Shown one piece after another: positions 1 to 59,551 of a stretch of DNA of 64,000 nucleotides (its first letter is position 1; each line of letters begins with the position of its first letter). The notes below the pieces were generated by a model. It did not search any database. It was not told where the DNA came from and was given only the letters and a program-made list of their open reading frames with translations. Source of the DNA: Microgenomates bacterium OLB22 (GTDB lineage: Bacteria > Patescibacteriota > Microgenomatia > UBA1406 > HO2-37-13b); NCBI GenBank assembly GCA_001567515.1, contig LLEV01000006.1, positions 69,039 through 133,038 on the forward strand, read 5' to 3'. A program made the position numbers and the translations under genes.

Positions 1-510
1 AAAAGTTCCGTTGTGCCTATCTCAGTAACAAGTCCTTCTCCTGAGCCTACATCATCTGTGCTTGAAAACACTGCCTCAGTTAGGGGAGCCAGAGGTATCT
101 TCACTGTCCAGATAGATACCGTCAAACGATATACAGTCGGAAGCACCATTGACGTCTATGTATATGCAAATTCGCAAGATGAGATCGTAAAGGGCTTTGA
201 TGTAGTACTTTTGTATAGTCCCTCAGTAAGTTTAGTGCGGACAGAAGGGTTGCTATCAAACTTCGACTATCTTAACTATGTAAAGGATCAGACGATATAT
301 GTCACTGGGGCACAAAAGCTACGTATTAATGATGTTTCGGTGTTGAAAAATGAAGCTATCGTGAAATACACCTTTACCGCTCTAACAAAAGGTATTGCAT
401 CATTTAAAATACTTCATAGACAAGGACTTATAACTGACTCTAATATGACAGGAAGCCAGAACATCGATCTGCTAAGTACTGTTACCAATGCACAGATCAC
501 CATAGAGTAA
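1..510 (+). CDS. Cohesin-domain surface protein, 5'-partial (frame open to the window edge)
   Basis: Track ORF 13..510 stays open in frame back to nt 1. The beta-rich module 'TIDVYVYANSQDEIVKGFDVVLLYSPSVSLV...AIVKYTFTALTKGIASFKI' follows the cohesin-type pattern also seen in the next ORF. Confidence 0.55.
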   Translation, partial: KSSVVPISVTSPSPEPTSSVLENTASVRGARGIFTVQIDTVKRYTVGSTIDVYVYANSQDEIVKGFDVVLLYSPSVSLVRTEGLLSNFDYLNYVKDQTIYVTGAQKLRINDVSVLKNEAIVKYTFTALTKGIASFKILHRQGLITDSNMTGSQNIDLLSTVTNAQITIE

Positions 511-1295
511 TGAAAGTAGAAACAAATCAAATGACTGTGTATACTGTTTTTATATCTATGCTAAGGACAAGTAGTTCACTCTGTATTCTCATTCTTTTTG
601 TTATGTTTTTTGTACCTGTGAAAGCATTTGCGGTAGCCTCTCTTGGTCTTGATCCAGAGACCATCAGTACCACAGCTGGGCAGGAGATCAGTGTTGGAGT
701 GATCGTTGATGCCGGGACTGATCAAATCCTAGGAACTGATGTCAAATTGCAATATGATGCATCTATCTTACAAATTGTGAATATATCTGATGGTACATAT
801 CTTCCAATTGGTAAAAAACTTACCAATGAGCCCGGGATGATCTATATTGCCGGTATAGTTGAGTCAGCGGGACAAACTAAAACCGGGAAGGGGACGCTTG
901 CAACTGTCAAATTCAAAGCTCTCAAAAATGGGAGTGTTACCCTATCTTTTCTTTGTCAGGAAAATCAGACAGCTGGAGATTCAAACATCGTCAACAACGA
1001 CGTAAGCCCAAAAGACATAATTAGTTGTTCTGATAATGGGAGCTCTGTGGTGACAGTTGGGACAGGAGGGGCTATAGCGACACCAGTGCCCACATCTGCC
1101 TCTAGTGGCAGTGGTAGCGGAGGCGGATCATCTAGCTCGTCTGGATCTTCGAGTTCAGGTGGGACTGGTGGTAGTGACGACGACTTGCCAGACGAACTGC
1201 CTCGTTCAGGTCTTGCTACACAGTTGTTATTCGTTGGTATCCCTGGCCTATTACTAGTGTTAGCGGGTATGTTGGCCCGTAGGTTTTTAGTGTAA
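510..1295 (+). CDS. Cohesin-domain protein with signal peptide and C-terminal LPRSG-TM-RR sorting signal
   Basis: N-terminal hydrophobic segment ends in 'VKAFA-VAS'. Cohesin-like core 'ISVGVIVDAGTDQILGTDVKLQYDASILQIV...GTLATVKFKALKNGSVTLSF'. A Gly/Ser linker is followed by 'LPRSG' (1197-1211), a hydrophobic helix and 'ARRFLV'. Confidence 0.65.
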   Translation: MKVETNQMTVYTVFISMLRTSSSLCILILFVMFFVPVKAFAVASLGLDPETISTTAGQEISVGVIVDAGTDQILGTDVKLQYDASILQIVNISDGTYLPIGKKLTNEPGMIYIAGIVESAGQTKTGKGTLATVKFKALKNGSVTLSFLCQENQTAGDSNIVNNDVSPKDIISCSDNGSSVVTVGTGGAIATPVPTSASSGSGSGGGSSSSSGSSSSGGTGGSDDDLPDELPRSGLATQLLFVGIPGLLLVLAGMLARRFLV

Positions 1296-1305
1296 GATCT
1301 TTTCT

Positions 1306-1920
1306 ATGTACATCACGAAAGAAAAAGTACTCAAATGGTCAGCTATTGCTCTTGGAGTAATTTTAGCGGGGTTACTACTGTGGCTTGTTTTTCAATATAT
1401 CCAGAGGTCCAGAGCCTCAAATCTCACTGCTGCTGATGTAAAGATTTCTGATATCACCAGCAACTCGTTTACTGTGTGCTATCAAACAACTAGTGGTCTT
1501 ACCCCTGTCGTCAAATATGGCACAGACCCGGCAAATCTCAACTTACTTGCCCCGCCAACCTCAGTGGTTGACGTGGACGGAGGAGAGTCACTTTATTGTC
1601 ATAAGGTCTTCCCATTAGTTGGACCCACGTATCATGCAATTGTCCAATTGAGCCCGGATAATGAAGTGGATAATGCAGGGACACCATTTATGATAAACCT
1701 GCTTTCAGGTTCAGCGCAGCCACCTGTCCCAACATCAGCAGTAGCAGTTTCTCCAACTACGCTTTTGATTCCTACGAGTGCAGCAGCTCCTACTACTGTT
1801 GCGCCGACCGTTGACTTTAAGTTGTGCTGTCCTGTGGACGCAAATAGCGATGGTCAAGTAGTGGATATACCTTCTGGATGCACTGCATTTGATGCGATCC
1901 GTTGTAAACAGTCAAAGTAG
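1306..1920 (+). CDS. N-terminally anchored FN3-like surface protein with Cys-rich C-terminal tail
   Basis: One TM helix is followed by 'QRSRAS'. 'SDITSNSFTVCYQTTSGLTPVVKYGTDPANL' is FN3-like. A Pro/Thr/Ala linker precedes the tail 'CCPVDANSDGQVVDIPSGCTAFDAIRC'. Confidence 0.5.
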   Translation: MYITKEKVLKWSAIALGVILAGLLLWLVFQYIQRSRASNLTAADVKISDITSNSFTVCYQTTSGLTPVVKYGTDPANLNLLAPPTSVVDVDGGESLYCHKVFPLVGPTYHAIVQLSPDNEVDNAGTPFMINLLSGSAQPPVPTSAVAVSPTTLLIPTSAAAPTTVAPTVDFKLCCPVDANSDGQVVDIPSGCTAFDAIRCKQSK

Positions 1921-1930
1921 TAGCTTTCTA

Positions 1931-2548
1931 TTATCCACCAATCAGGATCCCTACTGTCTTTTGAATAAGAGGTACAATATAGAGCTCTAGCATGCTTTTT
2001 GAGCCTGTCAAAGGAAGCATGAAGAACAGGAGAAACCATATACCATATCTCTCTAGCTTTATCCATTCTGAAGCCTGATCTTTGGAGAGAAGCCCTAGTA
2101 CTACTTTAAATCCATCCAGTGGGGCAAATGGAAGCAGATTAAAAATCGCTAACATCACGTTTACGTAGATGAGTAGCCCCAGAAAGGCTGAAAACATCCC
2201 AAATGGAACTAGACGTATGATAAGTGCAGCTAATATAGCACAAGCGATATTGGTCATCGGACCTGCCGCGGCAACAAGAGCACCATCTCTTCGAGGGTGT
2301 GAGAAGTTATACGGGTCAAAGGGGACTGGCTTAGCCCATCCAAACCCAACTAAGAGAAATAGTAACGATCCCCAGGGGTCTAAATGAGCACGTGGGTCTA
2401 GTGTTAGCCTACCATATGCCTCAGGAGTAGGATCGCCGAGTGAGTCAGCAGCTTTTGCATGCGCAAACTCGTGTATAGTAACAGCAATGATAAAACAGAC
2501 GATAGCTATGAGTGCACTTAGTGGATTGGAAAATAGTTGGGTCAACAT
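1931..2548 (-). CDS. Site-2 protease family (peptidase M50) zinc metalloprotease
   Basis: Multi-pass membrane protein with the HExxH motif 'HEFAHA' and 'LDPRAHLDPWGSL...NLLPFAPLDG', typical of small M50 proteases. Confidence 0.75.
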   Translation of the reverse strand: MLTQLFSNPLSALIAIVCFIIAVTIHEFAHAKAADSLGDPTPEAYGRLTLDPRAHLDPWGSLLFLLVGFGWAKPVPFDPYNFSHPRRDGALVAAAGPMTNIACAILAALIIRLVPFGMFSAFLGLLIYVNVMLAIFNLLPFAPLDGFKVVLGLLSKDQASEWIKLERYGIWFLLFFMLPLTGSKSMLELYIVPLIQKTVGILIGG

Positions 2549-2618
2549 GGTATGTTCTGTTGCAACGATTAGTACTCTATGATATCATACATACGTTATA
2601 GACCAAAATTCTTGAGTT

Positions 2619-2918
2619 ATGGCAGCAATATGTCTCATCTGCGGTAAAGGTAGCATGTATGGGCGTTCACATACTCACCGTAAAGGTGTGGCTGGTGGAC
2701 GTTGGAAAAAACGTGCCCAAAAAACACCCCGTATATTTAAAGCAAATCTTCAAAATGCAGCCGTTGATCTCGGAGGATTTAGAACGCGAGTAAGACTTTG
2801 TACCAAATGTATCAAGCGTATTAAGAAGGATGTTGCAGATGGTAAAACTCCAAAACTCAACCTGGTCTCTCTTCAAGTAAAGCCAGCGGATGCTGTCCTG
2901 GTAGCTGCTACAGCCTAA
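2619..2918 (+). CDS. rpmB: 50S ribosomal protein L28 (with C-terminal extension)
   Basis: 'CLICGKGSMYGRSHTHRKGVAGGRWKKRAQKTPRIFKANLQ' matches the L28 core (Cys-x2-Cys, then basic residues and '..F.PNLQ'). Confidence 0.8.
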   Translation: MAAICLICGKGSMYGRSHTHRKGVAGGRWKKRAQKTPRIFKANLQNAAVDLGGFRTRVRLCTKCIKRIKKDVADGKTPKLNLVSLQVKPADAVLVAATA

Positions 2919-2964
2919 AGGCCTATTCGTATCCTGCCTTTACACTCGTTTTATCATCCATATT

Positions 2965-3088
2965 TCAGAACTGGAGCTCCGCAGTTACAGTTCGTAGAAC
3001 CTCACTCCAGTGGGCCCCCTGGCATATTGCATGCCACACCCCACTTGCGTTTGGTAACGAACTGTACACTACTTTCGCTAGGTTCTGA
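2965..3088 (+). repeat. Family-1 structured repeat, copy 1 (candidate ncRNA or MITE-like element)
   Basis: The element is closed by TCAGAAC...GTTCTGA. It contains a 9-bp long-range helix (2987-2995 with 3057-3065) and the hairpin TGGCAT-ATTGC-ATGCCA (3020-3036). Homologous copies lie at 7072-7221 and 10938-11088. Confidence 0.85.
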
Positions 3089-3103
3089 AAAATAGATGAC
3101 TGG

Positions 3104-3126
3104 GGACTAAAAAGTTAGTCCTTTTT
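3104..3126 (+). terminator. Rho-independent terminator after rpmB and repeat copy 1
   Basis: Stem GGACTAA/TTAGTCC with loop AAAG, followed by TTTTT (3122-3126). Confidence 0.6.
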
Positions 3127-3160
3127 GGTCACTTTTGACTTCTAACTTCTGACTGTTTAC

Positions 3161-3682
3161 CTATATTTTATATTCCTCCAATTCTCCATCTTTCTCTATA
3201 TACAATCTTCCATGTTGTTCCATGATTCGTTGGGTGAAGAGGATTCCATTGAGGTGATCTACTTCATGCTGGATGATGATAGCCTTAAATCCACTAAACC
3301 ATTCTTCACGCTGCATCCCATGCTCATCCTGCCACACTAAACGAACCTTTTCTGATCTACGAACAGGGCCCCACAGTCGAGGGATAGAGAGACAGCCTTC
3401 TAAACGAGTCTCTTTCGATTTGGAGACGTGGGATATTTCTGATTGTTCGACTATCTCGGGATTTATAAAGACCTCAATTGGGGCTTGCTTTGTTGGCATC
3501 ATGATAAAGATTCGTTTTGCTACTCCTACCTGGGTTGCTGCAAGGCCGACCCCCTCAGGATCTTTGTGAGCTACTAGAGCTTTTTTCATCTCTGAGATGA
3601 GTGTGTGGATCTTCTTATCTATCCTCCCGACGGTAGCGGCCGGTGTGGTGAGCACTTCATGTGGCGTATGTATGATATTCAC
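3161..3682 (-). CDS. def: Peptide deformylase
   Basis: All three PDF motifs are present: 'GVGLAATQVG', 'EGCLSIP' and 'HEVDHL'. Confidence 0.9.
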   Translation of the reverse strand: MNIIHTPHEVLTTPAATVGRIDKKIHTLISEMKKALVAHKDPEGVGLAATQVGVAKRIFIMMPTKQAPIEVFINPEIVEQSEISHVSKSKETRLEGCLSIPRLWGPVRRSEKVRLVWQDEHGMQREEWFSGFKAIIIQHEVDHLNGILFTQRIMEQHGRLYIEKDGELEEYKI

Positions 3683-12569: not shown

Positions 12570-13073
12570 TCAAAGATCAATGATGTACGCCTTGCCAGGG
12601 GTATAGGTGTCGATCGCAAAAAATGGCGATACACTGAGCGCCTTATTCATGATCACAAAGCCCATGCCCTCGGTACGGCGTGCAAAATTCAGTACTGCCA
12701 GTGCTGCCCCTGTAGCCGCAGTGTGCGTTGAGCTACCAAAGCACTCCGAGCCATCAGGCATCTTATTGGCGATGCGGGTTACGACCTCTGCGTTTGCGAT
12801 GAGTGTGTCTTCCATTGACGGATAGCATGCATTTTGAATGCTGATTTCAAAGTCCACCTGTACCGTGTTCTTATCGTCCCTCTTGGGGCGCACTGCCGTT
12901 GGGCGGTCAGGCGCTCGTGTAGGGACAGCAAGAGGAGGTACCAATGTGGAGGCTCCATTCAAAACAGGTGTATTGATCGGTGCAGATTGGGTACCTTCAT
13001 CGATACCACGCTCACATCCGGTCACCAAGAGCGCTGTGACGGCGACTGCTGCGAACTTGAAAAGGGCTCTCAT
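12570..13073 (-). CDS. Putative lipoprotein
   Basis: Signal peptide with lipobox 'LLVTGC'. Overlaps the upstream gene by 4 nt. Confidence 0.6.
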   Translation of the reverse strand: MRALFKFAAVAVTALLVTGCERGIDEGTQSAPINTPVLNGASTLVPPLAVPTRAPDRPTAVRPKRDDKNTVQVDFEISIQNACYPSMEDTLIANAEVVTRIANKMPDGSECFGSSTHTAATGAALAVLNFARRTEGMGFVIMNKALSVSPFFAIDTYTPGKAYIIDL

Positions 13074-18997: not shown

Positions 18998-19789
18998 ATG
19001 TTACCAGTACTTATACATATTGGTTTTCTCAAGATATATTCGTTTGGCGTTTTTGTGGTGCTTGCACTCTTATGGGGGATGTTTTTTGTATGGAAATATG
19101 TAAAGCTCACTGCCCTTAAGGAGGAGGAAGTATTCGATATGGTCTTCGTAGGGATACTTAGTGGGGCCATAATCTCTCGACTCCTCTACGTCTTACTGCA
19201 CTGGTCGCAGTTTGGTCTTGATATCTCCCGCATCATCCTCATTAATGGTTATCCTGGGCTTTCACTCTATGGATTTCTATTTGGTTTTTTAGGAAGCCTG
19301 TATTTGTTGATGGAGCGTAAGAAAATTAGGTTTATTGAGACAATTGATTATGTTATCCCTGGCCTGTTCCTTGCTCTATCGATAGGTAAGCTGGGTAGCT
19401 TTATCGGGGGAATAGACGTCGGGTCGCAGACCACATTTTTCTTATCAGTATTGTACCCTGGCTATGAGGGCCTGCGTCATATAACTGCGGTCTATGAGGC
19501 GCTCTTGTACCTAATATTCTTCATTATCAGTCAACAGATACTCTTTTCTATCCGCAGAGAACGGTTCCATGACGGATTTCTTATCGTTTTCTTCACATGG
19601 AGCGTCTCTCTGATTACTCTTTCTCTTGACACTCTAAAAGACAATCAAGTATACTGGGGATCGTTTTCATCTAATGGGTTGATCTCGATAGTATTGCTTG
19701 TGGTAACAACCATCTATGGGGTCTATTATTGGAGGAAGCAATTAGTACAGATCGTTACATCAATTTCAAGAAAACTAAAAAAAGCATGA
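18998..19789 (+). CDS. lgt: Prolipoprotein diacylglyceryl transferase
   Basis: Multi-TM protein. 'GKLGSFIGG' and 'RHITAVYEALLYLIFF' parallel the Lgt motifs GR(I/L)GNF and RHPTQLYE. Confidence 0.65.
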   Translation: MLPVLIHIGFLKIYSFGVFVVLALLWGMFFVWKYVKLTALKEEEVFDMVFVGILSGAIISRLLYVLLHWSQFGLDISRIILINGYPGLSLYGFLFGFLGSLYLLMERKKIRFIETIDYVIPGLFLALSIGKLGSFIGGIDVGSQTTFFLSVLYPGYEGLRHITAVYEALLYLIFFIISQQILFSIRRERFHDGFLIVFFTWSVSLITLSLDTLKDNQVYWGSFSSNGLISIVLLVVTTIYGVYYWRKQLVQIVTSISRKLKKA

Positions 19790-24804: not shown

Positions 24805-25659
24805 ATGAAAGCTATTTCTATCCCCTCATTACTAGGTCGTATTGGTAAAAGACAACGATTCATATTATCGACAGCTCTGGCCACCATCTGTTTTATCTCT
24901 GCAAGTTTTAACTCATTTTCGCATATCCCATTTGTCCTGCCTATCTTGATGGTCCTGCTTTATGGTCTTATCTGGATAGCAATCCTTGAAGGTATCCATA
25001 GGCTTGAATGGTTTCTACTATTTATTGTCCCTCTTTATTTCACTGTTAGTCTCTTCTTGTTTTACTACTTTCTCCCACAACGATGGCTGACGAGATTACC
25101 CTTAGCACTGATTTACTCAGTTTCATTTTATGCGCTCTTGCTATGCCAAAACATATTTAACGTAGGTGTGGAGAAGAGTCTTCAGCTCTTTAGGGCAGCT
25201 TTTGCGGTGAACTACCTCTATGTGACAATAACGCTCTTCTTGATTACCAGTAGTATCCTCAGCTTTGGGTTACCGTTCTATGCCAATGGTGTTCTCTTGT
25301 TTCTATGTACATTCCCACTTGCGTTGCAATTTCTCTGGTCTGTAAATCCCGAAGAGCAATTGGAAAAACAACTGATCTATATGGCCTGTGGTATAGCTAT
25401 CCTAGTAGGGGAGGTTGGGTGGTTTTTGTCCTTTATACCAGTTAACTCGTCCATCATTGCTCTAGTGGCAACAGGAGTCTTCTATAGTGTTAGCGGGTTA
25501 TCTCAGGCATATCTGCTTGATAGACTTTTTTCAGCAAAAGACGAGGGAATATGTCTTTGTGCTCATCTTTGTACTAGTCTTGTTCCTACTCTCTATCAGG
25601 TGGTAGGAATCTGTGTTACATTTAGCGACGTCCAAGAAAGCATGTTAAGTTATTACTGA
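24805..25659 (+). CDS. Hypothetical polytopic membrane protein (C-terminus possibly frameshifted)
   Basis: About 8 hydrophobic helices. After the T6 run at 25526-25531 the +1 frame encodes a more plausible last helix, 'YVFVLIFVLVLFLLSIRW', with a stop at 25604-25606. Confidence 0.5.
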   Translation: MKAISIPSLLGRIGKRQRFILSTALATICFISASFNSFSHIPFVLPILMVLLYGLIWIAILEGIHRLEWFLLFIVPLYFTVSLFLFYYFLPQRWLTRLPLALIYSVSFYALLLCQNIFNVGVEKSLQLFRAAFAVNYLYVTITLFLITSSILSFGLPFYANGVLLFLCTFPLALQFLWSVNPEEQLEKQLIYMACGIAILVGEVGWFLSFIPVNSSIIALVATGVFYSVSGLSQAYLLDRLFSAKDEGICLCAHLCTSLVPTLYQVVGICVTFSDVQESMLSYY

Positions 25660-26524
25660 TCCTTGTCTCTAGCGGTTTTATGTCTCTGTTTGAGTAAAAT
25701 GTAGAAAAGCTTTGACATAGGTAGAAGCAAGGCAGGGTAGAGGGAAGTAGCAGAGAAGAGTGGTGGCCTATAATATATTATCCCATAATACATATCCTAT
25801 AGTTTTCTAATAAACACACGTCCGTTAGGGAAGGGTGTGGATAACTATAACGAACGTATTTTTTTCGTACTATCCCTCCTGGCTTCTGCTTCACCAGTAA
25901 ATAAGCACAAAAATAAAAGAATTGACTGTCAAAACAAGCCAAATAAATCATATGTAACCACTCCCGGGAAGGGGCTCTTGCCCTTTGGCTTAGGTTTCGC
26001 TCACTTATGACTAGCAGCCGCCAGATATGGTGCTAGTAAGTGTTAGACCGGCAGTAAGGTACTTCTGCTTATGCTTAGTTTGTGTTGGTATTTGGTGATT
26101 TCACAGGATCAGTCCTAAGAATTGAAACGATGTGTGGACCGCGAAATGTTATCCTTGCCTACAACCATAGAGATGGCACATTTATTGGTAGATAGAAGTG
26201 ATTACATAACGTCGTAAAATGAATCTTTTACGACGTCTACACTCTCCAACGAAGGGGAGCTTGTGATTTTTACTTTCGACTATTATTGACTAATTCTTCC
26301 CTATTTGACTATGTTCGTATTTCAGACCCCCTCTCTAGCTCCTCTATTTATCAATTAATCAAAATATCTCAAGAAGTCTACTATGGGCCTTGATAAAATT
26401 AGATTTATATTGTCACAAGGGGCAAATCCTTCCCTACCCCGTTGCAAAGACAGAAGAGAATCATCAGTTGATTTTTATTTTCTCCTTTGTGACAATGAAA
26501 TGAGTACTCTATACAAGACACAAC

Positions 26525-27109
26525 ATGAATTACACTCCACTACCAGAAGGGCTGTCTTCTATTAACGAATCTCCTGTACATAGGGGAGTGGCATCACACA
26601 CCTTAGTCACGGGTCTCAAGGGGCTGGTTGTGGTCGTACTTACGGTTGCGGCTGGGCTTTCTACAGCAACCCTCATCCGTAATGCGGTAACGTTGCAAAA
26701 TAAGGCAGAAGAACAAAATCAGGTTGCTATGTGTACTGGACAAGGTGGAGTCGTCTGGGACGGTCAGACGTGTCCGGATGGTGCACAGGAGGTCAATAAG
26801 ATCGTTACTCAGATCGCTGCATCAAGCCAGGACGCCACATCACCATCTGATGGGACCGTAACTGTGCCGCAGGATGGTACTGCTAGTGGCGATGGTATAT
26901 CTAGCAGTTTACAGCCCGCTACACGCGTTCAACTTTGTTGCAAACTACATACCACACTACCTACGACATCAAAAGAAGATACTACACCGGTCGAACCTAC
27001 ACCGTCACCAAGTGTTTCGGAGCCAGCTCCAACTGAAGCGGAGCGATGTGAATTGCCAGGCATAACTACTATTTTAAGTTGTCCAGAAGGATGTAGCTCT
27101 ACGCGTTAA
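26525..27109 (+). CDS. Surface-operon gene 1: anchored Cys-containing protein with PT linker and C-terminal C..SCPxxC tail
   Basis: TM helix 'LVVVVLTVAAGLSTATLI' followed by 'LQNKAEE'. Tail 'CELPGITTILSCPEGC'. The stop abuts the next ATG. Confidence 0.55.
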   Translation: MNYTPLPEGLSSINESPVHRGVASHTLVTGLKGLVVVVLTVAAGLSTATLIRNAVTLQNKAEEQNQVAMCTGQGGVVWDGQTCPDGAQEVNKIVTQIAASSQDATSPSDGTVTVPQDGTASGDGISSSLQPATRVQLCCKLHTTLPTTSKEDTTPVEPTPSPSVSEPAPTEAERCELPGITTILSCPEGCSSTR

Positions 27110-28456
27110 ATGAGCCAATTATTAGTACTACTAGGAGTGTTGAAGAAAGACAAAAGGATCTTGCTATTGTCACTTATCACGATAGCTCTTATAGTGGGAG
27201 CCTTCTTGACATCTTTTTGGGTTGTCCAAAATAAAGCAACGGTACGTAATAGGGCTGCCGAACCTCTGTCATGTCAGCCTATCTATGCCAACTGTAGAGT
27301 ATCTTGCGAAGACTTGAGTAGTGAAGCCAAAAACACCAAATATCTAATCTCTGTTTACAAAAATGTAGGTGGCAAGAGAGTCCCCGAGGAGCCGATCGCA
27401 TCGACAGAGTATAGTTGCTCAGACAGTACCAGGGGCCCTCTCGCTTTCTCCACGGGAGTGCCTGTCGCACTGCAAGAAAGCGAAGAAGTAGAGTGTGAAG
27501 TACGACAAATACACCTGAACCAATCTTGTGTCGCTAAGTCTGACAAACAGACGCAACAATGCGTTAAGCCAGGGGGTGAGCCGACACCGGCCCCCCCACA
27601 GTCTTGTGCATGCAGCCCTGAAGATGGCTGTACTCTCATCCGTGAAGATATCAATAAAAAATACGTGGGGAAACAGGGCCCTGGTCTTGTTGAAATAAAG
27701 ATGCAGTTTCCTGCCTGTTTCAACTGCGATTATGCAGTTGTAAAAGATGCTGCCGGCAAGGAGGTACGTAGATATCAATGTGATGATACCATACGCTACC
27801 ATCAGGCTCAGGTAACAGCGTGTACTACCTATAAGACCGAGTTAGTTGCCAAGGATGGGACTACTAGAACTTGTCAGACATGCGAAAAGGAAGTATGTTG
27901 TCCATCGTGTCAGCCGCTTGAGCAGCTCCCCTCTCTATCTGCCGGTAGTGCCGGTGCCCGAGGCTGTGAGATCCCCAGTAGTGAAAGTCCGGGTTGTACG
28001 TTTGATATAGTTGGAGGACAGCAGTGTCCTGCAGCGGGGAGTACGGTCCAGATCAGGGTTCGACATAGAGTATCCTCTGGTGAACAAGTAGAGCACTGCC
28101 TTATGACAGATAAAGACAATGGCACTACAGGCGAAACTAAGTGTTTTAAGACTACAAAAAGCGAAGAGATCATTGAGGTGCCTTATCCTGATGCTGGTGT
28201 ATATGATCTTCGCTTGCTTTGCCGAGTTGGTGAATTCCCTACTCTCAATGGAGCAGAACCAGATCGTATTCCTGAGGGATTGAGTGATTTTGAGTGTAGG
28301 CAAAGGATGACCGTAGTTTGTGGTGCTAATACAACCCCTCCATCAGGCGGGCCTCCCCCACCCTCTTCTACTCCAACACCTGCAGCGTGTGTTCCGCTAA
28401 AACCAAAATTAAAAATCGAGTGTCCCCAGATAGGATCACAGAAAGTCTGTTTATAA
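27110..28456 (+). CDS. Surface-operon gene 2: large cysteine-rich anchored protein (paralogue A)
   Basis: TM helix followed by 'VRNRAAEP', about 30 Cys, and multiple blocks shared with 28460..29866. Tail 'CVPLKPKLKIECPQIGSQKVC'. Confidence 0.65.
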   Translation: MSQLLVLLGVLKKDKRILLLSLITIALIVGAFLTSFWVVQNKATVRNRAAEPLSCQPIYANCRVSCEDLSSEAKNTKYLISVYKNVGGKRVPEEPIASTEYSCSDSTRGPLAFSTGVPVALQESEEVECEVRQIHLNQSCVAKSDKQTQQCVKPGGEPTPAPPQSCACSPEDGCTLIREDINKKYVGKQGPGLVEIKMQFPACFNCDYAVVKDAAGKEVRRYQCDDTIRYHQAQVTACTTYKTELVAKDGTTRTCQTCEKEVCCPSCQPLEQLPSLSAGSAGARGCEIPSSESPGCTFDIVGGQQCPAAGSTVQIRVRHRVSSGEQVEHCLMTDKDNGTTGETKCFKTTKSEEIIEVPYPDAGVYDLRLLCRVGEFPTLNGAEPDRIPEGLSDFECRQRMTVVCGANTTPPSGGPPPPSSTPTPAACVPLKPKLKIECPQIGSQKVCL

Positions 28457-28459
28457 CCT

Positions 28460-29866
28460 ATGAATACATCTCTTATTAAAGATAAAAGACAACTAGCATA
28501 TCTAGGACTCATGGTACTATTCGTAGTGGTCACGCTCCTTTTTGCACTACGAGATCGTATAACCTTTTTCAATAGAGCAAGTACCCCACAACAATGCGTC
28601 CCAAGTAGTGTGAGCTGTCGTCTTGATGTTGGCTCCCCTATCTCAGGACCTTATCGACTCAAGTTGATCGATGATTCTGGAAAAGAGCTCAAGAAAAGTG
28701 AGGTTTTGGATACCGCGACATTACAAGATGTCTTGACTTACTCATTTGATGCTAGCAAGGTATGTCGCGATGGAGCAAACAGTGTGAATTGTGATAACAT
28801 TGCTGGCTTTAAATGTATTGCTGAGTACACGGACCCACAGCTCGCTCAATGTAATGCCACTACATCATTGAGAAATGAATGTACTCAGGAGGTCACCCCA
28901 ACAGTCCCCGAGCAATGTTCTTGTAGTGAATCAGGTCTTGATTGTGATGGCGGGATCAAGGAGGAGTCTTATAAAAAAGGTGACGAAGTCGGCCCTGGAC
29001 TCATCGAGCTAAACCCTCGTTTCAGCGGGCCTGCCTGTTTTGAGTGCAAACAATTAGTAGTTCGGGATAGTAAAGGTATAACTGAGACGTTTGATTGTAG
29101 TGGGTATCCAAAAGATGCCTCAGGTTTACTACTACCTACACCGACAGTAATTCGGCTACGTCAAGCGCAAGGCTCGGCTTGCATGACATATACACTCGAA
29201 TTGGAGGGTGTAACCGGGAAGACCCCAACGACATCTTCATATGGTGCTTGTGGTGAGTGTAAACAGCAAGTGTGTTGCCCTGCCTGTCAGAAGCCCACTA
29301 CCCTACCCGACCCAAATGATCCATCTAAGCTAAGTTGTTCATCTAATCAATGTAAGTTCTCATTTGTTTCCTTCCCCAACCAATGCCCACGTCCTGGCGA
29401 TACTCAGCGATATGAAGTAGCTATTAGTGCTCCAGGTACATATTGTATAGATGGCGATCAGTATGGCCAATCCAGTGCCCCCGATGACCAATGTCGCACT
29501 GTCACCGCAACAGAGCTTTCGCAAGCTGGAGGCAAGATACTATGGCAGCCATCTATCCCCTATCCTAATGCAGGGGTCTATGACGTGAAGCTGCGCTGTG
29601 ATATAGATCGACTTGATGACCACATCGTGCCTATCAAGACTCCAGAGTATTGTGTCCAGCGTTTCTCAGTGAGTTGTAATGATCGTGGAGGCCCTCCAGG
29701 AGATGGAGGCCCAGGTGAGCCTACAGAGACACCTATCCCAACAGCTACTCCAGTGCCACCGACTAAAACTCCAACGCCAACAAAGGCTATTATCACCCCG
29801 ACAGGTATTTGTACGTTAGATGGTTCCCTATTAAATGTTCGGATGAGTTGTCCTACCTGTAAATGA
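28460..29866 (+). CDS. Surface-operon gene 3: large cysteine-rich anchored protein (paralogue B)
   Basis: TM helix followed by 'FFNRASTP'. Paralogous blocks 'GPGLIELNPRFSGPACFEC', 'VCCPACQK' and 'PYPNAGVYDVKLRC'. Tail 'CTLDGSLLNVRMSCPTC'. Confidence 0.65.
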   Translation: MNTSLIKDKRQLAYLGLMVLFVVVTLLFALRDRITFFNRASTPQQCVPSSVSCRLDVGSPISGPYRLKLIDDSGKELKKSEVLDTATLQDVLTYSFDASKVCRDGANSVNCDNIAGFKCIAEYTDPQLAQCNATTSLRNECTQEVTPTVPEQCSCSESGLDCDGGIKEESYKKGDEVGPGLIELNPRFSGPACFECKQLVVRDSKGITETFDCSGYPKDASGLLLPTPTVIRLRQAQGSACMTYTLELEGVTGKTPTTSSYGACGECKQQVCCPACQKPTTLPDPNDPSKLSCSSNQCKFSFVSFPNQCPRPGDTQRYEVAISAPGTYCIDGDQYGQSSAPDDQCRTVTATELSQAGGKILWQPSIPYPNAGVYDVKLRCDIDRLDDHIVPIKTPEYCVQRFSVSCNDRGGPPGDGGPGEPTETPIPTATPVPPTKTPTPTKAIITPTGICTLDGSLLNVRMSCPTCK

Positions 29867-30606
29867 TTATGAACAAACGAATACTAATCGCTGGCGGTCT
29901 GATAGTCATCCTCATTGCCCTTGTAGCAGGACTATTCTTGACAACGCAACAGCAGGACATACGAGAACGAGCGGATGAGCCTACAGCAGCACCACAAAAC
30001 CCATTTACCTCCCCTACCCTGCCGCCTCAACAATGTGGCGGGGATGGCGGTCTGTGTGAGTGGGATGCGGTCCCGGGTGCAACAGGATATTGTTATCGTA
30101 TAGAGAAGAAAGTAGGAGATGCCTTTGTCCCCTTTATTCCTAAACTTGCTAAAGATGACTGCATCCCCACAAATGAGACTAAGGTTTCATTTACCATGGA
30201 GTCAGGTATCCCCTATCGCTGTAGCGTCAAACTAGCTGGAGTGGCATCCATTTGTGAAGCTAATTCAACCGATCAGGCAACATTGACCTGCGGGCAACTG
30301 ACACCAACATCTCCAGCTGGAACTACGACCCCAACTACTGGAGTTGGTACTCCTACAAGCATTCAGGCATCGATCACACCTTCGACCCCCTCAGGAAGTG
30401 CTTCGACAACTCCCACCACTGCTACAGTAGGGGGTGGATCTGGCCCTACTACTGCCTCATCACAAAACAATGCAAATCCTACCGCAGCTACTACCACAAA
30501 TAACCAAACTGGTTCAACGCAGCTCCCGCGTGCTGGACTACTTGATTACTCTGTTGTGATTATTGGATTGGGGCTACTTGTAGTGGCTGTTGGCTTTGTG
30601 CTATGA
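29863..30606 (+). CDS. Surface-operon gene 4: FN3-like protein with Thr/Pro stalk and LPRAG-TM C-terminal anchor
   Basis: TM helix followed by 'IRERADEP'. 'CEWDAVPGATGYCYRIEK' is FN3-like. A long T/S/P linker precedes 'LPRAG' (30523-30537) and a hydrophobic C-terminus. Confidence 0.6.
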   Translation: MIMNKRILIAGGLIVILIALVAGLFLTTQQQDIRERADEPTAAPQNPFTSPTLPPQQCGGDGGLCEWDAVPGATGYCYRIEKKVGDAFVPFIPKLAKDDCIPTNETKVSFTMESGIPYRCSVKLAGVASICEANSTDQATLTCGQLTPTSPAGTTTPTTGVGTPTSIQASITPSTPSGSASTTPTTATVGGGSGPTTASSQNNANPTAATTTNNQTGSTQLPRAGLLDYSVVIIGLGLLVVAVGFVL

Positions 30607-33066
30607 TGATGTATGTGCCTATGAAATCGCGACGTGGTGAGATCGCTACAACTCTTACACTTATTTCCCTGCTTCTGGCAGGTATTGGTACGTTGGTTGG
30701 GGCACGTGTGACGGTCCAACAACGTCAGCAGACACAAACCCTGGCAGCAGGAGCTAGTGGTTGTGGGATGAGCTGTAGTAAAAACTCAGATTGTATGCGA
30801 TCAGTTACTAACTCTTCAGGTGAGGAGGTCACTTTGGCATGTGATATGCGTGTTAAAAAATGCCTTGCTGCTTCAGGAGAGAGAGATCGATGTGATGATG
30901 TCTCCGGTGGTGGAGGTAGCGGAGGTAATTGTGGTGTTGACTGTCGCAATGACCGGGATTGTAATAATACAGATGCAACTGATTCGAGCATTCGGCTCCA
31001 CTGCGACTTCACTATAGGGAGAGCTGCTGGTCGAGGAAGATGTCAAGGATTTCCCAACGGCAAACAGTGTCCCAACATACCGACACCAACGTCACGATTT
31101 GCGGGTGGAGGGACCACTGGTGGATCAGGGGGGCTGAGCCCCATCCCATCTGGTTTCAGACTCCCATCAGGAGACCCCTTCCCCACAGGAGCTCTACGTG
31201 GAGGGACGCCTGGTCCTACCTTTGTCGCAACTACACAGGCACCACAGACAGGCGGGGGCACGTCTTCTAGTCCTCAGGGTAATAGGTTTAGCACTGCAGC
31301 CTTGCGATGTGGTGGGACATTCCGTGTTGAGATAGATCCAGTTATAGACCGTATCCTTATCCGAGGAGGTAGTGGTCAGTCATATGTTCTAGGTAATGCC
31401 GATGAAGTGAGTGGTAGTGATACCGGTCGACGCTCCCCTGTCGGGTATCGTATGTGGATGAGCTTTAGTAGACAACAAATAGATAACATCAAAGTTGACT
31501 TTAGTGAGGGGGTACAGCGCAATGGTCGGTCGAGCTGTCTATCTAGGTCTACGTAGTGGTGGCCATCCTGATCCCGATCTAAACCAAGATGCCGCTGTTG
31601 ATATGTATTATTTCTCCTCTGTCCCGGCATTTGTATTTGATGGAACACCAAAGACTATAGAGCTTGAGTATCACGTACAGGGTAATAGAAGTGGCCGTGC
31701 TGGCACCCCTGAGTATTTCCAGCAGTCTATATCTACTAACGGATGCTCAGCATCAACCACAACGATCATCACAACACCAAGTGCAACGCAGACGCCCCCA
31801 AGGACACCTACACCTTCACGGACAGCGACACCTACTGCAGAAACTGCCCCACCCCCTAGTCCCTGTTCTACTAATGTACATTTCCTTATTGATGCATCTG
31901 AGACTATGCGTCAGTTCATTGAGCCTTCGATGACTAATCTGGTGGCTGCCATAAACGACTATGCACGGGCAGACTTTGCCAGAAATGATAATATTACCGT
32001 CACCCGACAATTCTTTTATAGAGACGTTGAGGGCTCTTCATCCCCTAAGAGTGCGAGGACTATCACTGATGCCGATTTTGCATTTCCGCGAAATAAGCAC
32101 TGGACCAATATTCACGATGCCCTGCAGCAAGGGATCCGTGGCACCACTGTGTTTATCTCTGATGGTCTTCCGTCGGTGCGCAAATATGCGCTCCAAGAAA
32201 AAGCCTGGTGTGTTTTTGGCAACGGGCCTGCGATGAGTGGAGGTGGTTCAGATAAAAAAGCAGACGGATGCGAGCCAGATGCTAATGTGAGTGGTAAATT
32301 CAACAATAATCGTCCATCCTGTTCGCCTCAATGTACTACAAAGACGTACTCAGACGCATACAGAGAGTCGAAATCAGGCTCAGCACAATTTAGCGTGTTT
32401 GTGGCAACTCCAGATGGGGATAGAGGTTTTATGGAGTCTGTTGCCAACGAGACTATAAACTTCTCCGATCTTCCAAATAAGCTTCATGAGATATTTAATG
32501 CTGCTTGTAACCGACCTGCTCAGGGGTTCTTACCTACCGGAAGAGGCACGGGGTCAGCATCACGTAGTGGATCTTCTCAATCATTTATGTCGTCGTTTAC
32601 CATGCAAAATAATTCGTCACGAACGCTATCCGGGATCAGGACTGAGGTGTGTTCAGGGTCAGGGAGCTGCGTCACCTCAAGTCAGCCAGTCCTACTTGGC
32701 CCAGGCCAAAGCTCTCGTGTATCTAGTTTAGTAGGCAATGTGCCACTACAAGGCACCTTCAATGTTAGAAATACACTCCTTTTTGCTGATGGCGGCGAAG
32801 AACAAGGGTCATCACGAACACTTTCAAGGACCAACGGTGTTCAGTATTCTCTGCAGTTGCAAGATAACGGTACTAGATCTACAGTCAAAACCTATACAGA
32901 GGCTTCTGATGTCAATGGTGATGGCGAGGTAAACACGCTTGATGCTGCTACTTGTGCTCGCAGCTATGGAAGTGCCGATGTCCGTTGTGACATCGTGTCT
33001 GATGGTACGGTAAATGCGCAGGATAATGCAGCTCTAATAGGAAATGCAGGAAGTTCAACACAATAA
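30603..33066 (+). pseudogene. Surface-operon gene 5: about 820-aa anchored adhesin (2 Cys modules, Gly-rich region, vWA, dockerin), split by a G5 frameshift
   Basis: 30603..31556 has the TM anchor. 31495..33066 lacks one and overlaps it by 62 nt. Deleting one G from 31508-31512 gives '...VDFSEGYSAMVGRAVYLG...'. MIDAS-like 'LIDASET' at 31891-31905. Dockerin 'DVNGDGEVNTLD...DIVSDGTVNAQD' at 32908-33066. Confidence 0.6.
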
Positions 33067-33068
33067 TT

Positions 33069-33689
33069 ATGCCGAAAATAAAAAGGCAATCCATACAGCC
33101 CTACATCCAAATGATAGTCATCGCAGCGATGCTATGTGGCCTTGCAGGTTTTGTGTACCTTATCATAAATGGTGCTTTGACACTTGATTCACAAGCAGCG
33201 CGAGAGAGACTCAGATGTGGTGAGTCCTGCAATACCAATAGAGATTGTGCTGCCTATGCCAAGAGAACAGCAACCGGTGATGTGATATCTATGCACTGCT
33301 TTACTGGGCGCTATGGGAGACATAGTGTTGGCGATGGGACTGGCTCAGTCTCTTATCGTGGGACATGTGCCCCTCGTGGTCTACGTCCTGCAAGTCGTAT
33401 ACAGGTATTTGAGTCCTGTCGAGGCCTTGAGCCATTTACAAAGTCCCGAGTAGCCCCACTAGTAAGCCCACGACCTACCAGTGGTGCAGTAAATAGGTTT
33501 GCACAGCCCACAAGAGCGAGAAGCCAAGCCATGTGTAACTCTACTTGTGAGGGAAACAGTGATTGCAGGGCAGCACATTTCTGTTATAGTTTTCGAGAGA
33601 ATGGCGCTGAGGTGAAGCGCTGTCGGTCTCGAGTGTGTCGTACAGATACGGACTGTGTTTGTGACCTGAAAGAAGCACCAGGACAATAA
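33069..33689 (+). CDS. Surface-operon gene 6: anchored protein with two CGxxCxxxxDC modules
   Basis: TM helix followed by 'SQAARE'. 'CGESCNTNRDCAAY...C' and 'CNSTCEGNSDCRAAHFC...CRTDTDCVC'. Confidence 0.55.
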   Translation: MPKIKRQSIQPYIQMIVIAAMLCGLAGFVYLIINGALTLDSQAARERLRCGESCNTNRDCAAYAKRTATGDVISMHCFTGRYGRHSVGDGTGSVSYRGTCAPRGLRPASRIQVFESCRGLEPFTKSRVAPLVSPRPTSGAVNRFAQPTRARSQAMCNSTCEGNSDCRAAHFCYSFRENGAEVKRCRSRVCRTDTDCVCDLKEAPGQ

Positions 33690-58996: not shown

Positions 58997-59551
58997 TCAA
59001 TTCTCCTTGTTAGGAGATGTTTTTTTATTTCCGACCTTTATTACCAATGGACAGTAGCGCAGGCGTATTCGGAGGCTTTTGATACTTTCCTCGAGCTTCT
59101 TCTTACTCATGCGTATTCTCTTCCCCACTGCAGGCTCCAGGATGGTGAAGGTCGCCGGTGTGGCTGACTCGATGATGATGTAATGCGGGCTGTGGTCATA
59201 GTTCCCAAGTTGGTGAGTGTCTATTTGAACGATGACAGGATAGCTCAATTGTTCGAGGAACTGTACCCTGACCTTTTGATGGATAAATACGAGGTTTTTT
59301 GAGTCATAATGAGTCTTTAAAAAAGAACAAAAGTACGCATTATCTACGTAAATAGTGATCCTCCTAGAATACTGTCTTTGAAAAGCTGTAACTATCCCTG
59401 CTACATATCCCCCATGCAGATCGAGCAATCCCTCAAAGGGAATCTCCTTCTCTTTTTCAGTCGAAGGTACGATTCCGTGGCATTGTAAAAGGCAGACTGG
59501 TAGACAGCTCTGTGATGTTGTTTGTTTATAGGGTTCCATGAGGCACATCAT
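58997..59551 (-). CDS. Papain-fold cysteine peptidase, C39-like
   Basis: 'YKQTTSQSCLPVCL' (Gln/Cys) and 'NYDHSPHYIIIE' (His) are arranged as in C39-type peptidase domains. Tentative. Confidence 0.4.
   Translation of the reverse strand: MMCLMEPYKQTTSQSCLPVCLLQCHGIVPSTEKEKEIPFEGLLDLHGGYVAGIVTAFQRQYSRRITIYVDNAYFCSFLKTHYDSKNLVFIHQKVRVQFLEQLSYPVIVQIDTHQLGNYDHSPHYIIIESATPATFTILEPAVGKRIRMSKKKLEESIKSLRIRLRYCPLVIKVGNKKTSPNKEN

Follow-up and report, generated by a model that had tools for sequence, protein, structure and literature searches.

Secretion (Sec) signal peptides that are cut by signal peptidase I follow the −3/−1 rule of von Heijne, under which position −1 is Ala, position −3 is small and uncharged, position −2 is tolerant, and position +1 is not Pro. 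A related group, the SipW-cognate signals of the TasA/TapA/camelysin class (NCBIfam TIGR04088), has an A-[YF]-F-[ST]-D type motif past the cleavage site. Here, we describe the N termini of seven proteins encoded in a 64,000-nucleotide stretch of Microgenomates bacterium OLB22 (contig LLEV01000006.1, positions 69,039–133,038, forward strand; hereafter the window), in which a long hydrophobic helix is followed by a polar spacer that ends in a recurring motif with Ala as its last residue. The window sequence is Roizmanbacteria-like (Microgenomates, candidate phyla radiation [CPR]). Based on comparative sequence analysis, the motif is probably the site at which signal peptidase I would cut a Sec signal peptide that is lineage-typical, basic, and unusually long.

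Six open reading frames (ORFs) within 26525–33689 (+), namely 26525, 27110, 28460, 29863, 30603, and 33069, each start with one hydrophobic helix, and the gene 1306–1920 lies 25 kb upstream of this run. The seven presequences are listed below, where a slash after Ala marks the putative cut and this Ala is the putative −1 residue; codon ranges cover −3 to +1.

1306..1416, forward strand: presequence of 1306–1920 (FN3/PAP_N-like); K-rich n-region, helix, QYIQ spacer, S-R-A; ..LWLVFQYIQRSRA/SN, Ala37; codons 1408–1419.

26525..26707, forward strand: presequence of 26525–27109; helix, RNAVTLQ-N-K-A/EE, Ala61; codons 26699–26710; a weaker form.

27110..27256, forward strand: presequence of 27110–28456 (Cys-rich protein); KKDKR, 23-residue helix, QNKA/TVR-N-R-A/AEP (..VVQNKATVRNRA/AEP), Ala49; codons 27248–27259.

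28460..28579, forward strand: presequence of 28460–29866 (27110 paralogue); KDKR, helix, RDRITF-F-N-R-A/STP, Ala40; codons 28571–28582.

29863..29973, forward strand: presequence of 29863–30606; MNKR, helix, TTQQQDIR-E-R-A/DEP, Ala37; codons 29965–29976.

30603..30746, forward strand: presequence of 30603; KSRRGEIATTLTLISL helix, RVTVQQRQQTQ-T-L-A/AG, Ala48; codons 30738–30749.

33069..33197, forward strand: presequence of 33069–33689; KIKR, helix, NGALTLD-S-Q-A/ARE, Ala43; codons 33189–33200; a weaker form.

A sequence-only reading of the window had quoted seven N-terminal strings, all of which are present as read, and had proposed a shared R-x-R/K-A signature behind a Gln/Asn-rich spacer, at a fixed distance from the helix. 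The recurring motif is real, but the literal form R-x-[RK]-A occurs in only three of the seven proteins, 1306 (RSRA), 27110 (RNRA), and 29863 (RERA); 28460 reads FNRA, and the weak cases read NKA (26525), TLA (30603), and SQA (33069). The core common to all seven is [small/polar]-[K/R, sometimes Q/L]-Ala, with Ala at residues 37–61, and the proposed fixed distance is approximate, with 8 to 14 residues between the apolar stretch and Ala. The Gln/Asn-rich spacer is strong in the window (29% Gln/Asn), but in relatives these residues are up only ~1.6-fold, and there the 2.5-fold enrichment of Lys and the depletion of Asp (0.12-fold) are stronger.

Most likely, judged from these sequences, R-x-R/K-A represents positions −4 to −1 of a signal peptidase I site with a basic residue at the tolerant −2 position. 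All seven presequences have Lys or Arg before the hydrophobic stretch, although the core is longer than usual, and they comply with the rule at −1 (Ala in 7/7) and at +1 (Pro in 0/7). The chief departure from the textbook form concerns the c-region, which should be short (~3–7 residues) and uncharged and here has a median length of 10 residues. The basic residue at −2 is Arg in this 45% GC genome and Lys in relatives in which Lys predominates.

Position-specific conservation is seen in the 1306 family. An exhaustive HMMER search with the 1306 protein yielded 50 representatives, mostly at ~30% identity, approximately 40 of which are laid out alike, with a K-rich start, a long helix, the sequence [F/L/I]-[T/S/G]-R-A-[S/A/G]-x-x-x-P-x-D-V, and a β-sandwich domain. 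In an alignment of 35 family members (mean column identity 20%, pairwise identity ~25–30%), only two columns are invariant across the whole protein, namely Ala37, which is the Ala of the “RA”, and Tyr71. Position −3 is occupied by Ser (11 sequences), Gly (10), Thr (10), or Ala (2), adding up to 33/35, and position −2 by Arg (26), Lys (3), or Gln (3). At +1, 31/35 sequences have Ser (17), Ala (10), or Gly (4), and Pro never occurs. An AlphaFold2 model of 1306 based on this alignment (mean predicted local distance difference test score of 82) has a helix at residues 5–35, a lower-confidence linker at residues 36–42 that holds Ala37, and the first strand at residue 43. Two homologues without the long helix (P0152 and P0153), of a type that presumably stems from non-CPR bacteria, carry the textbook sites GIAQA/QQ and IAAA/QN at the same junction before the first β-strand.

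Interchangeability of the two kinds of site is also seen in the cohesin-like family, where, at one aligned position and at a fixed distance before a conserved L-x-F-D-K/P, V-E-A/A, V-K-A/A, A-Q-A/A, and S-A-S-A/A alternate with S-I-R-A/A, Q-T-R-A/A, and K-A-R-A/A. Since A-x-A and x-R-A swap at the same junction, the signature does not differ in kind from an A-x-A site. The contrary claim of the sequence-only reading is therefore given up: the same −3/−1 rule applies, and the swap takes place in both the cohesin-like and the 1306 families. Its claim of a conserved determinant at the junction between helix and mature domain is borne out by the invariant Ala in 35 homologues and by recurrence of the motif in unrelated proteins. 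Instead of a new kind of sorting signal, this determinant is most likely the cleavage site of a long Sec signal; a cleavable helix, which had also been considered, is the best reading of the sequences.

The enrichment of the motif is lineage-wide. A metagenome scan seeded by a five-sequence alignment of the 1306 family gave 80 loci (662 kb), in which 331 of 658 ORFs begin with a helix. The control set consisted of 80 loci of distant, unrelated, non-CPR bacteria, obtained from a YebC-neighbor search of genome contigs (39–45% identity). The pattern R..A[ASD] occurs post-helix in 6/28 ORFs with an N-terminal helix in Roizmanbacteria-like sequence, with ~0.4 expected, and in 1/148 in the control loci. 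At the family level, [STPN][KR]A was found in 14/62 CPR families (3.5% expected from the internal rate) and 4/88 control families (5.4% expected), and [KRQN][STPN][KR]A in 8/62 (0.6% expected) and 0/88 (1.6% expected), respectively. The loose pattern [small][KR]A fails to discriminate between families (16/62 versus 12/88 in controls). Because loose patterns do not discriminate, we used these stricter patterns and a motif-blind scan of all post-helix 2-mers and 3-mers in 175 nonredundant proteins.

In the latter scan, SKA ranked first (13 observed versus 0.57 expected, p = 5e-14); the top 11 included RAS, RA (28 versus 8.3), FNR, RAA, and SRA, and the top 20 also included RAT and KAT, whereas nothing comparable was enriched in the control loci. 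The motif is far more frequent than chance predicts. Many neighboring proteins that were not picked by the query also carry the motif, as in QYLYRSKA/GASS, NAPKSKA/AGET, SGPRSRA/TGET, NKYLYKPKA/TNTC, KIASNPRA/AGE, YQSRA/YVPQLC, and KLVFFNRA/TDNQ. Of 52 nonredundant [KR]A occurrences in families other than that of 1306, 37 have Ser, Thr, or Pro at −3 and 21 have Lys or Arg at −4, Pro at −3 being found in relatives; in other families, the first Cys or domain motif follows 2 to 8 residues past Ala. A profile of eight N termini returned nothing at E ≤ 10 from an index of 5.8 billion proteins, the query being too short for a database of that size. Literature searches of incomplete coverage gave no description of the motif for CPR bacteria.

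The QNK of 26525 is the second most enriched post-helix 3-mer in the related loci. In 27110, a second candidate site, Q-N-K-A, lies at Ala43; its motif is kept as IRNRAAEP in an orthologue (locus L001) with 74% identity, which is the single database relative, so that the 27110 family offers no test of conservation. The FFNRA/ of 28460 also occurs post-helix in L148 (KLVFFNRA/TDNQ) and L162 (KLIFFNRA/SGNQ), whose kinship to 28460 was not compared. The 29863 presequence, with an atypical Glu at −3, is identical in its L001 orthologue. In 30603, position −2 is not basic, and homologues in L086 read QDVR-T-S-A/AG and QDVR-S-Q-A/AG. As to the start of 26525, approximately 30 residues (MNYTPLPEGLSSINESPVHRGVASH..) precede the helix, far more than in neighboring ORFs (region 26525–26620); the true start codon may lie further downstream than annotated, unless the n-region is itself out of the ordinary. 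For the L001 orthologue of 26525, the data cover the C terminus alone.

The seven proteins had been called otherwise unrelated, which holds for at least five independent families, as far as similarity can be detected, and not for the remainder. With 28% identity (E = 1e-27) and aligned NRA residues, 27110 and 28460 are paralogues, so that the four strong cases include one dependent pair, and 30603 and 33069 have a CGxSCxxxxDC Cys-rich module in common. The other pairs compared, 29863 versus 1306 and 26525 versus 27110, showed no detectable similarity. Pfam and NCBIfam recognize almost nothing in these proteins; the exceptions in this region and around 1306 are a dockerin in 31495–33066, a cohesin in 510–1295, and a weak purple-acid-phosphatase-N/FN3 signal in 1306.

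ORF 31495–33066 has no N-terminal helix and overlaps 30603–31556 by 62 nt in a different frame, around a G5 run at 31508–31512. An 831-residue protein from L086 aligns to 30603 at its N terminus and to 31495–33066 at residues 436–831 (E = 9e-31). Because this homologue spans both ORFs, 30603–31556 and 31495–33066 constitute one frameshifted, Cys-rich, dockerin-ended gene of ~820 codons; the frame break near 31508–31512 may stem from a sequencing error or from slippage, or may mark a pseudogene. This gene part and two further features are listed below:

31495..33066, forward strand: dockerin-bearing C-terminal part of the 30603 gene; Dockerin_1 match, E = 4.8e-8.

30523..30606, forward strand: C terminus of 29863; LPRAG and a hydrophobic tail, no basic tail; possible sortase-type sorting signal.

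510..1295, forward strand: contrast case, a cohesin-domain protein; short classical signal ..VPVKAFA/VAS; C-terminal LPRSG, transmembrane (TM) helix, and RR (nt 1197–1295).

The last of these belongs to a conserved operon, a cohesin–dockerin set according to Pfam, found at 13–2548 of the window and in loci L096–L175. Its members are a long-class protein with cohesin and dockerin, an N-terminally anchored cohesin that lacks the motif, an LPxSG cohesin with a classical signal, and a long-class FN3/PAP_N-like protein. Next come a convergent peptidase gene of the M50 (site-2-protease) family and a deformylase gene. Three loci (L153, L157, and L162) are syntenic with window positions 510–3682, with cohesin-like gene, FN3-like gene, convergent M50 peptidase, and deformylase. 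Approximately 45 cohesin-like homologues in L096–L175 end in LPxSG, a TM helix, and Lys/Arg, and 510–1295, with LPRSG, a TM helix, and ARRFLV, has all three features of a sortase signal. In 29863, a long-class N terminus occurs together with LPRAG and a TM helix, and the match to NCBIfam EF0750_LPXTG is weak (E ~1e-3, below the cut-off). No sortase gene is present in the window. Across the loci, the C-terminal sorting signals read LP[KQRTE][ST]G (LPRSG, LPKSG, and LPQSG), then [VI]-F-[DE]-N, a helix, and a K/R tail.

Two N-terminal populations are found in the same loci. The −1 Ala has a median position of residue 40 in the long class and 26 in the classical class; the median apolar core is 19 versus 12.5 residues, the median c-region is 10 versus 8 residues, and the c-region contains 2 to 3 Lys/Arg versus 0. 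Long-class N termini occur on 17 of 23 dockerin-bearing proteins, and short-class N termini on 17 of 22 LPxSG proteins, counts that are dominated by two conserved families, so that the association is a lead rather than a result.

A further observation on the Cys-rich proteins concerns their starts. A set of large members (320–2579 residues) begins with [KR]-x-G-E-[IV]-[AL]-T-[LI]-[LI]-T (GE[IV]ATL[IL]T start), namely at 30603–30680 in the window and in L086, L099, L106, L114, L124, L137, L153, L155, L157, L159, and L162. Except in the window and L086, each of these genes precedes one for a small single-helix protein with [S/T]-P-R-[V/I/L]-N just post-helix, and a 98-residue three-helix protein (MYIGPFYFDTKE..HNEAFF) is often next after the pair. 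Pfam gave no match for any of the three kinds of protein, and together they resemble a conserved module.

In the long-class presequences, a basic n-region is followed by an apolar core of ~19 residues, which is of membrane-spanning length, and by a ~10-residue spacer in which Lys, Asn, and Gln are frequent and acidic residues scarce. This spacer ends in [S/T/G/P/N]-[K/R]-Ala, which in the proposed mechanism would be −3/−2/−1 of a site for type I signal peptidase (LepB/S26). The helix would insert with its N terminus in the cytoplasm, probably cotranslationally via the signal recognition particle (SRP), a route that appears probable because the helix is so hydrophobic, and the remaining chain would be translocated after insertion. 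Signal peptidase I would then cut past the invariant Ala, a few residues ahead of the first folded domain, and thereby free a mature protein of the Cys-rich, FN3-like, or dockerin-bearing kind. For the very hydrophobic long class, we infer SRP-dependent targeting, and a positive-inside constraint may be relaxed in organisms with low membrane potential.

Several observations weigh against cleavage by signal peptidase I. The TM-length core (19 versus 12.5 residues) and the charged 10-residue c-region (2 to 3 Lys/Arg versus 0) resemble those of uncleaved signal anchors, and long h-region cores disfavor cleavage by this enzyme, as established in work on h-region length. Four of the seven window proteins have poor −3 residues, namely Asn (27110, 28460, and 26525) or Glu (29863). 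Neither the window nor the fetched loci showed an S26 peptidase gene, and the enzyme is thus assumed. The family and k-mer counts are inflated by residual relatedness, the contrast with controls and internal sequence still being large. Alternatively, the helix could be an uncleaved signal anchor, which would make the proteins type II membrane proteins that are tethered by their N terminus, with the spacer ending in [K/R]-Ala as a juxtamembrane stalk; being basic and acid-poor, such a stalk might, for example, contact anionic wall or membrane polymers. The Lys/Arg on both flanks of the core, the long charged spacer, and the NCBIfam results, in which the FtsN, CcmE, and LptC N-terminal anchors gave only sub-threshold likeness and the signal-type models no match, are in line with such tethering. 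We nevertheless consider it unlikely, because an anchor does not explain an invariant Ala with small residues at −3 and +1, nor the exchange with A-x-A sites at the same position, which moreover lies at a domain boundary. In addition, the motif is missing from clear anchors of the same operons (a 200-residue TM-cohesin and a LytR-like protein), and it is present on dockerin-bearing proteins and on the LPRAG-bearing 29863, so that dockerin- and LPxxG-bearing proteins would be held at both ends.

The existence of two discrete N-terminal populations (Ala at ~40 versus ~26, with the differences in core and charge given above) raises the question of whether the long class is a sorting class of its own, with a dedicated enzyme instead of the housekeeping signal peptidase, in which case processing would decide between release (dockerin) and wall anchoring. 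Such an enzyme could be a second S26 paralogue resembling SipW, or a protease directed at Lys/Arg and cutting between [K/R] and Ala. The distribution of long and short classes over dockerin-bearing (17/23) and LPxSG (17/22) proteins, the strong preference for basic residues at −2 and −4, and the M50 intramembrane peptidase gene that is convergent to the 1306-family gene in the window, L153, L157, and L162 would fit. However, Ala (35/35) is more conserved than the basic residue (29/35; Gln, Asn, Gly, and Ser are tolerated), which speaks against Lys/Arg as P1, and none of the curated signal-class models gave a match. Two conserved families account for most of the association with dockerin and LPxSG. 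The co-occurrence with a specific peptidase gene that the sequence-only reading suggested looking for was not found: no such gene travels with the signal save M50, itself within housekeeping synteny (def and ychF). We regard a dedicated enzyme as distinctly improbable, and give only slightly more credence to the broader, still doubtful idea that Microgenomates use two discrete export signals, a short classical one on sortase-anchored proteins and a long one on released dockerin-bearing or Cys-rich proteins, the latter via a dedicated route or peptidase or via delayed cleavage. Finally, the resemblance could be a by-product of paralogy and composition, with tandem duplicates inheriting their N terminus and short K/R-A strings arising by chance. 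The paralogy of 27110 and 28460, with aligned motif residues, the module in common to 30603 and 33069, and the chance frequency of loose [KR]A (15–27% of 31-residue windows) agree with this, but at least five unrelated window families carry the motif, which also recurs in unrelated neighbors across 80 independent loci and tops an unbiased enrichment scan in which controls are flat. With Ala invariant at ~25–30% pairwise identity, this explanation is largely refuted and very improbable.

Other types of N-terminal signal were considered and rejected. A lipoprotein (signal peptidase II) signal would have the lipobox L-[AS]-[GA]-C with Cys at +1, whereas here the first Cys is at least 5 residues past Ala; a true lipobox is found elsewhere in the window, at 12570–13073 (LVTGC), with lgt at 18998–19789. 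The class III prepilin motif, [KR]-G/[FM]-[ST]-L-[IL]-E before the helix, occurs in 0/7 proteins, without any TIGR02532-type match, as the sequence-only reading had held; in the RRGEIATTLTL of 30603, Glu is at +1 and not at +5, and the sequence is part of a protein of ~820 residues. For the twin-arginine translocation (Tat) pathway, whose signals carry [ST]-R-R-x-F-L-K in the n-region, S-R-R is present only in 30603, with G-E-I as the next residues; homologues do not keep the RR (KQGEIA, KTGEVA, and LQHGEIA), and no TAT model matches. The SipW-cognate class gave no NCBIfam match at E ≤ 10 on isolated N termini, with no S26 gene nearby. Rhomboid and furin/kexin-like cleavage, the latter after a basic residue, were likewise rejected, the invariant residue being Ala rather than Lys/Arg and the site lying outside the helix.

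As to the genomic setting, the top named relatives of the DUF5656 membrane protein at 24805–25659 are from Candidatus Roizmanbacteria (Microgenomates, CPR). The block upstream of the cluster (CBS, lgt, dksA-like, Na/H exchanger, LytR-like, TPR, yebC, and DUF5656) is kept in synteny in five related contigs, whereas the seven-gene cluster is not kept in the loci of DUF5656 relatives; the 30603-type gene alone recurs, at the same place in L086. Inside the gene-free gap after the DUF5656 gene (25660–26524) lies a perfect 28-nt palindrome, ACGTCGTAAAATGAATCTTTTACGACGT, at 26209–26236. Six related loci have the palindrome at the same spot downstream of DUF5656, with invariant arms despite diverged flanks and without covariation. 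A second hairpin and a T-run come after it in the window and in some of these loci. The RNA fold z-score is −3.8, with no Rfam match, and the palindrome could be a protein-binding operator or a small-RNA core. The only peptidase-like genes seen in the window are that for M50 at 1931–2548 and a 184-residue ORF at 58997–59551 (−), whose match to Peptidase_C39 stays below the threshold (E = 2e-4, 21.6 bits versus a cut-off of 22) and which has no evident connection to the post-helix motif.

If the long N termini are cleaved, TM-helix predictors would be expected to mislabel many surface and secreted proteins of CPR bacteria as membrane anchored, which would distort inferences on the secretome and on host interactions for a large uncultivated radiation. 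A lineage rule, consisting of a helix, a K/N/Q spacer, and [S/T]-[K/R]-Ala at approximately residue 35–46, could correct such calls and guide N-terminomics. That one operon contains both long basic and classical signals, the former apparently on dockerin-bearing and the latter on sortase-anchored proteins, offers a tractable route to the question of how surface proteins are sorted in organisms with a Gram-positive-like envelope and weak energetics. Should the two-signal reading be true, the motif would be a sorting code for building a cohesin–dockerin cell surface in CPR bacteria.

Among known systems, the SipW-cognate signals resemble the long class in being a second recognizable signal class beside ordinary signals; they are found on surface and matrix proteins of monoderm bacteria and depend on an S26-family enzyme. 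They differ in that their A-[YF]-F-[ST]-D type motif is not seen in the long class, for which no NCBIfam signal model gave a match, and in that sipW rides in the operon, whereas neither the window nor the fetched loci revealed an S26 gene. Uncleaved signal anchors (FtsN, CcmE, and LytR-CpsA-Psr) also have a single TM-length helix near the N terminus after a basic segment, but the LytR-like protein and the TM-cohesin of the same loci show neither a conserved [S/T]-[K/R]-Ala nor an invariant junction Ala.

With the Sec/signal peptidase I signals of monoderm bacteria (LepB/SipS, S26), the long class has in common the basic n-region, the hydrophobic core, Ala at −1, a small uncharged −3, a tolerant −2, the lack of Pro at +1, and the location of the site just ahead of the first folded domain. 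It differs in the length of its core (~19 residues, which is TM length, versus ~12–15), in a c-region of ~10 residues with 2 to 3 Lys/Arg and almost no Asp/Glu, in a strong preference for Lys/Arg at −2 and −4 and for Ser, Thr, or Pro over Ala or Val at −3, and in its total length of ~35–46 residues, with cleavage predicted from sequence in the present case. Sec signals cut by signal peptidase I are a known type; unusual here are the long core, the acid-poor K/N/Q spacer, Lys/Arg at −2, and Ala at ~40. Taken together, the motif appears to work like, and most probably is, a Sec/signal peptidase I signal with an atypical h-region and c-region.

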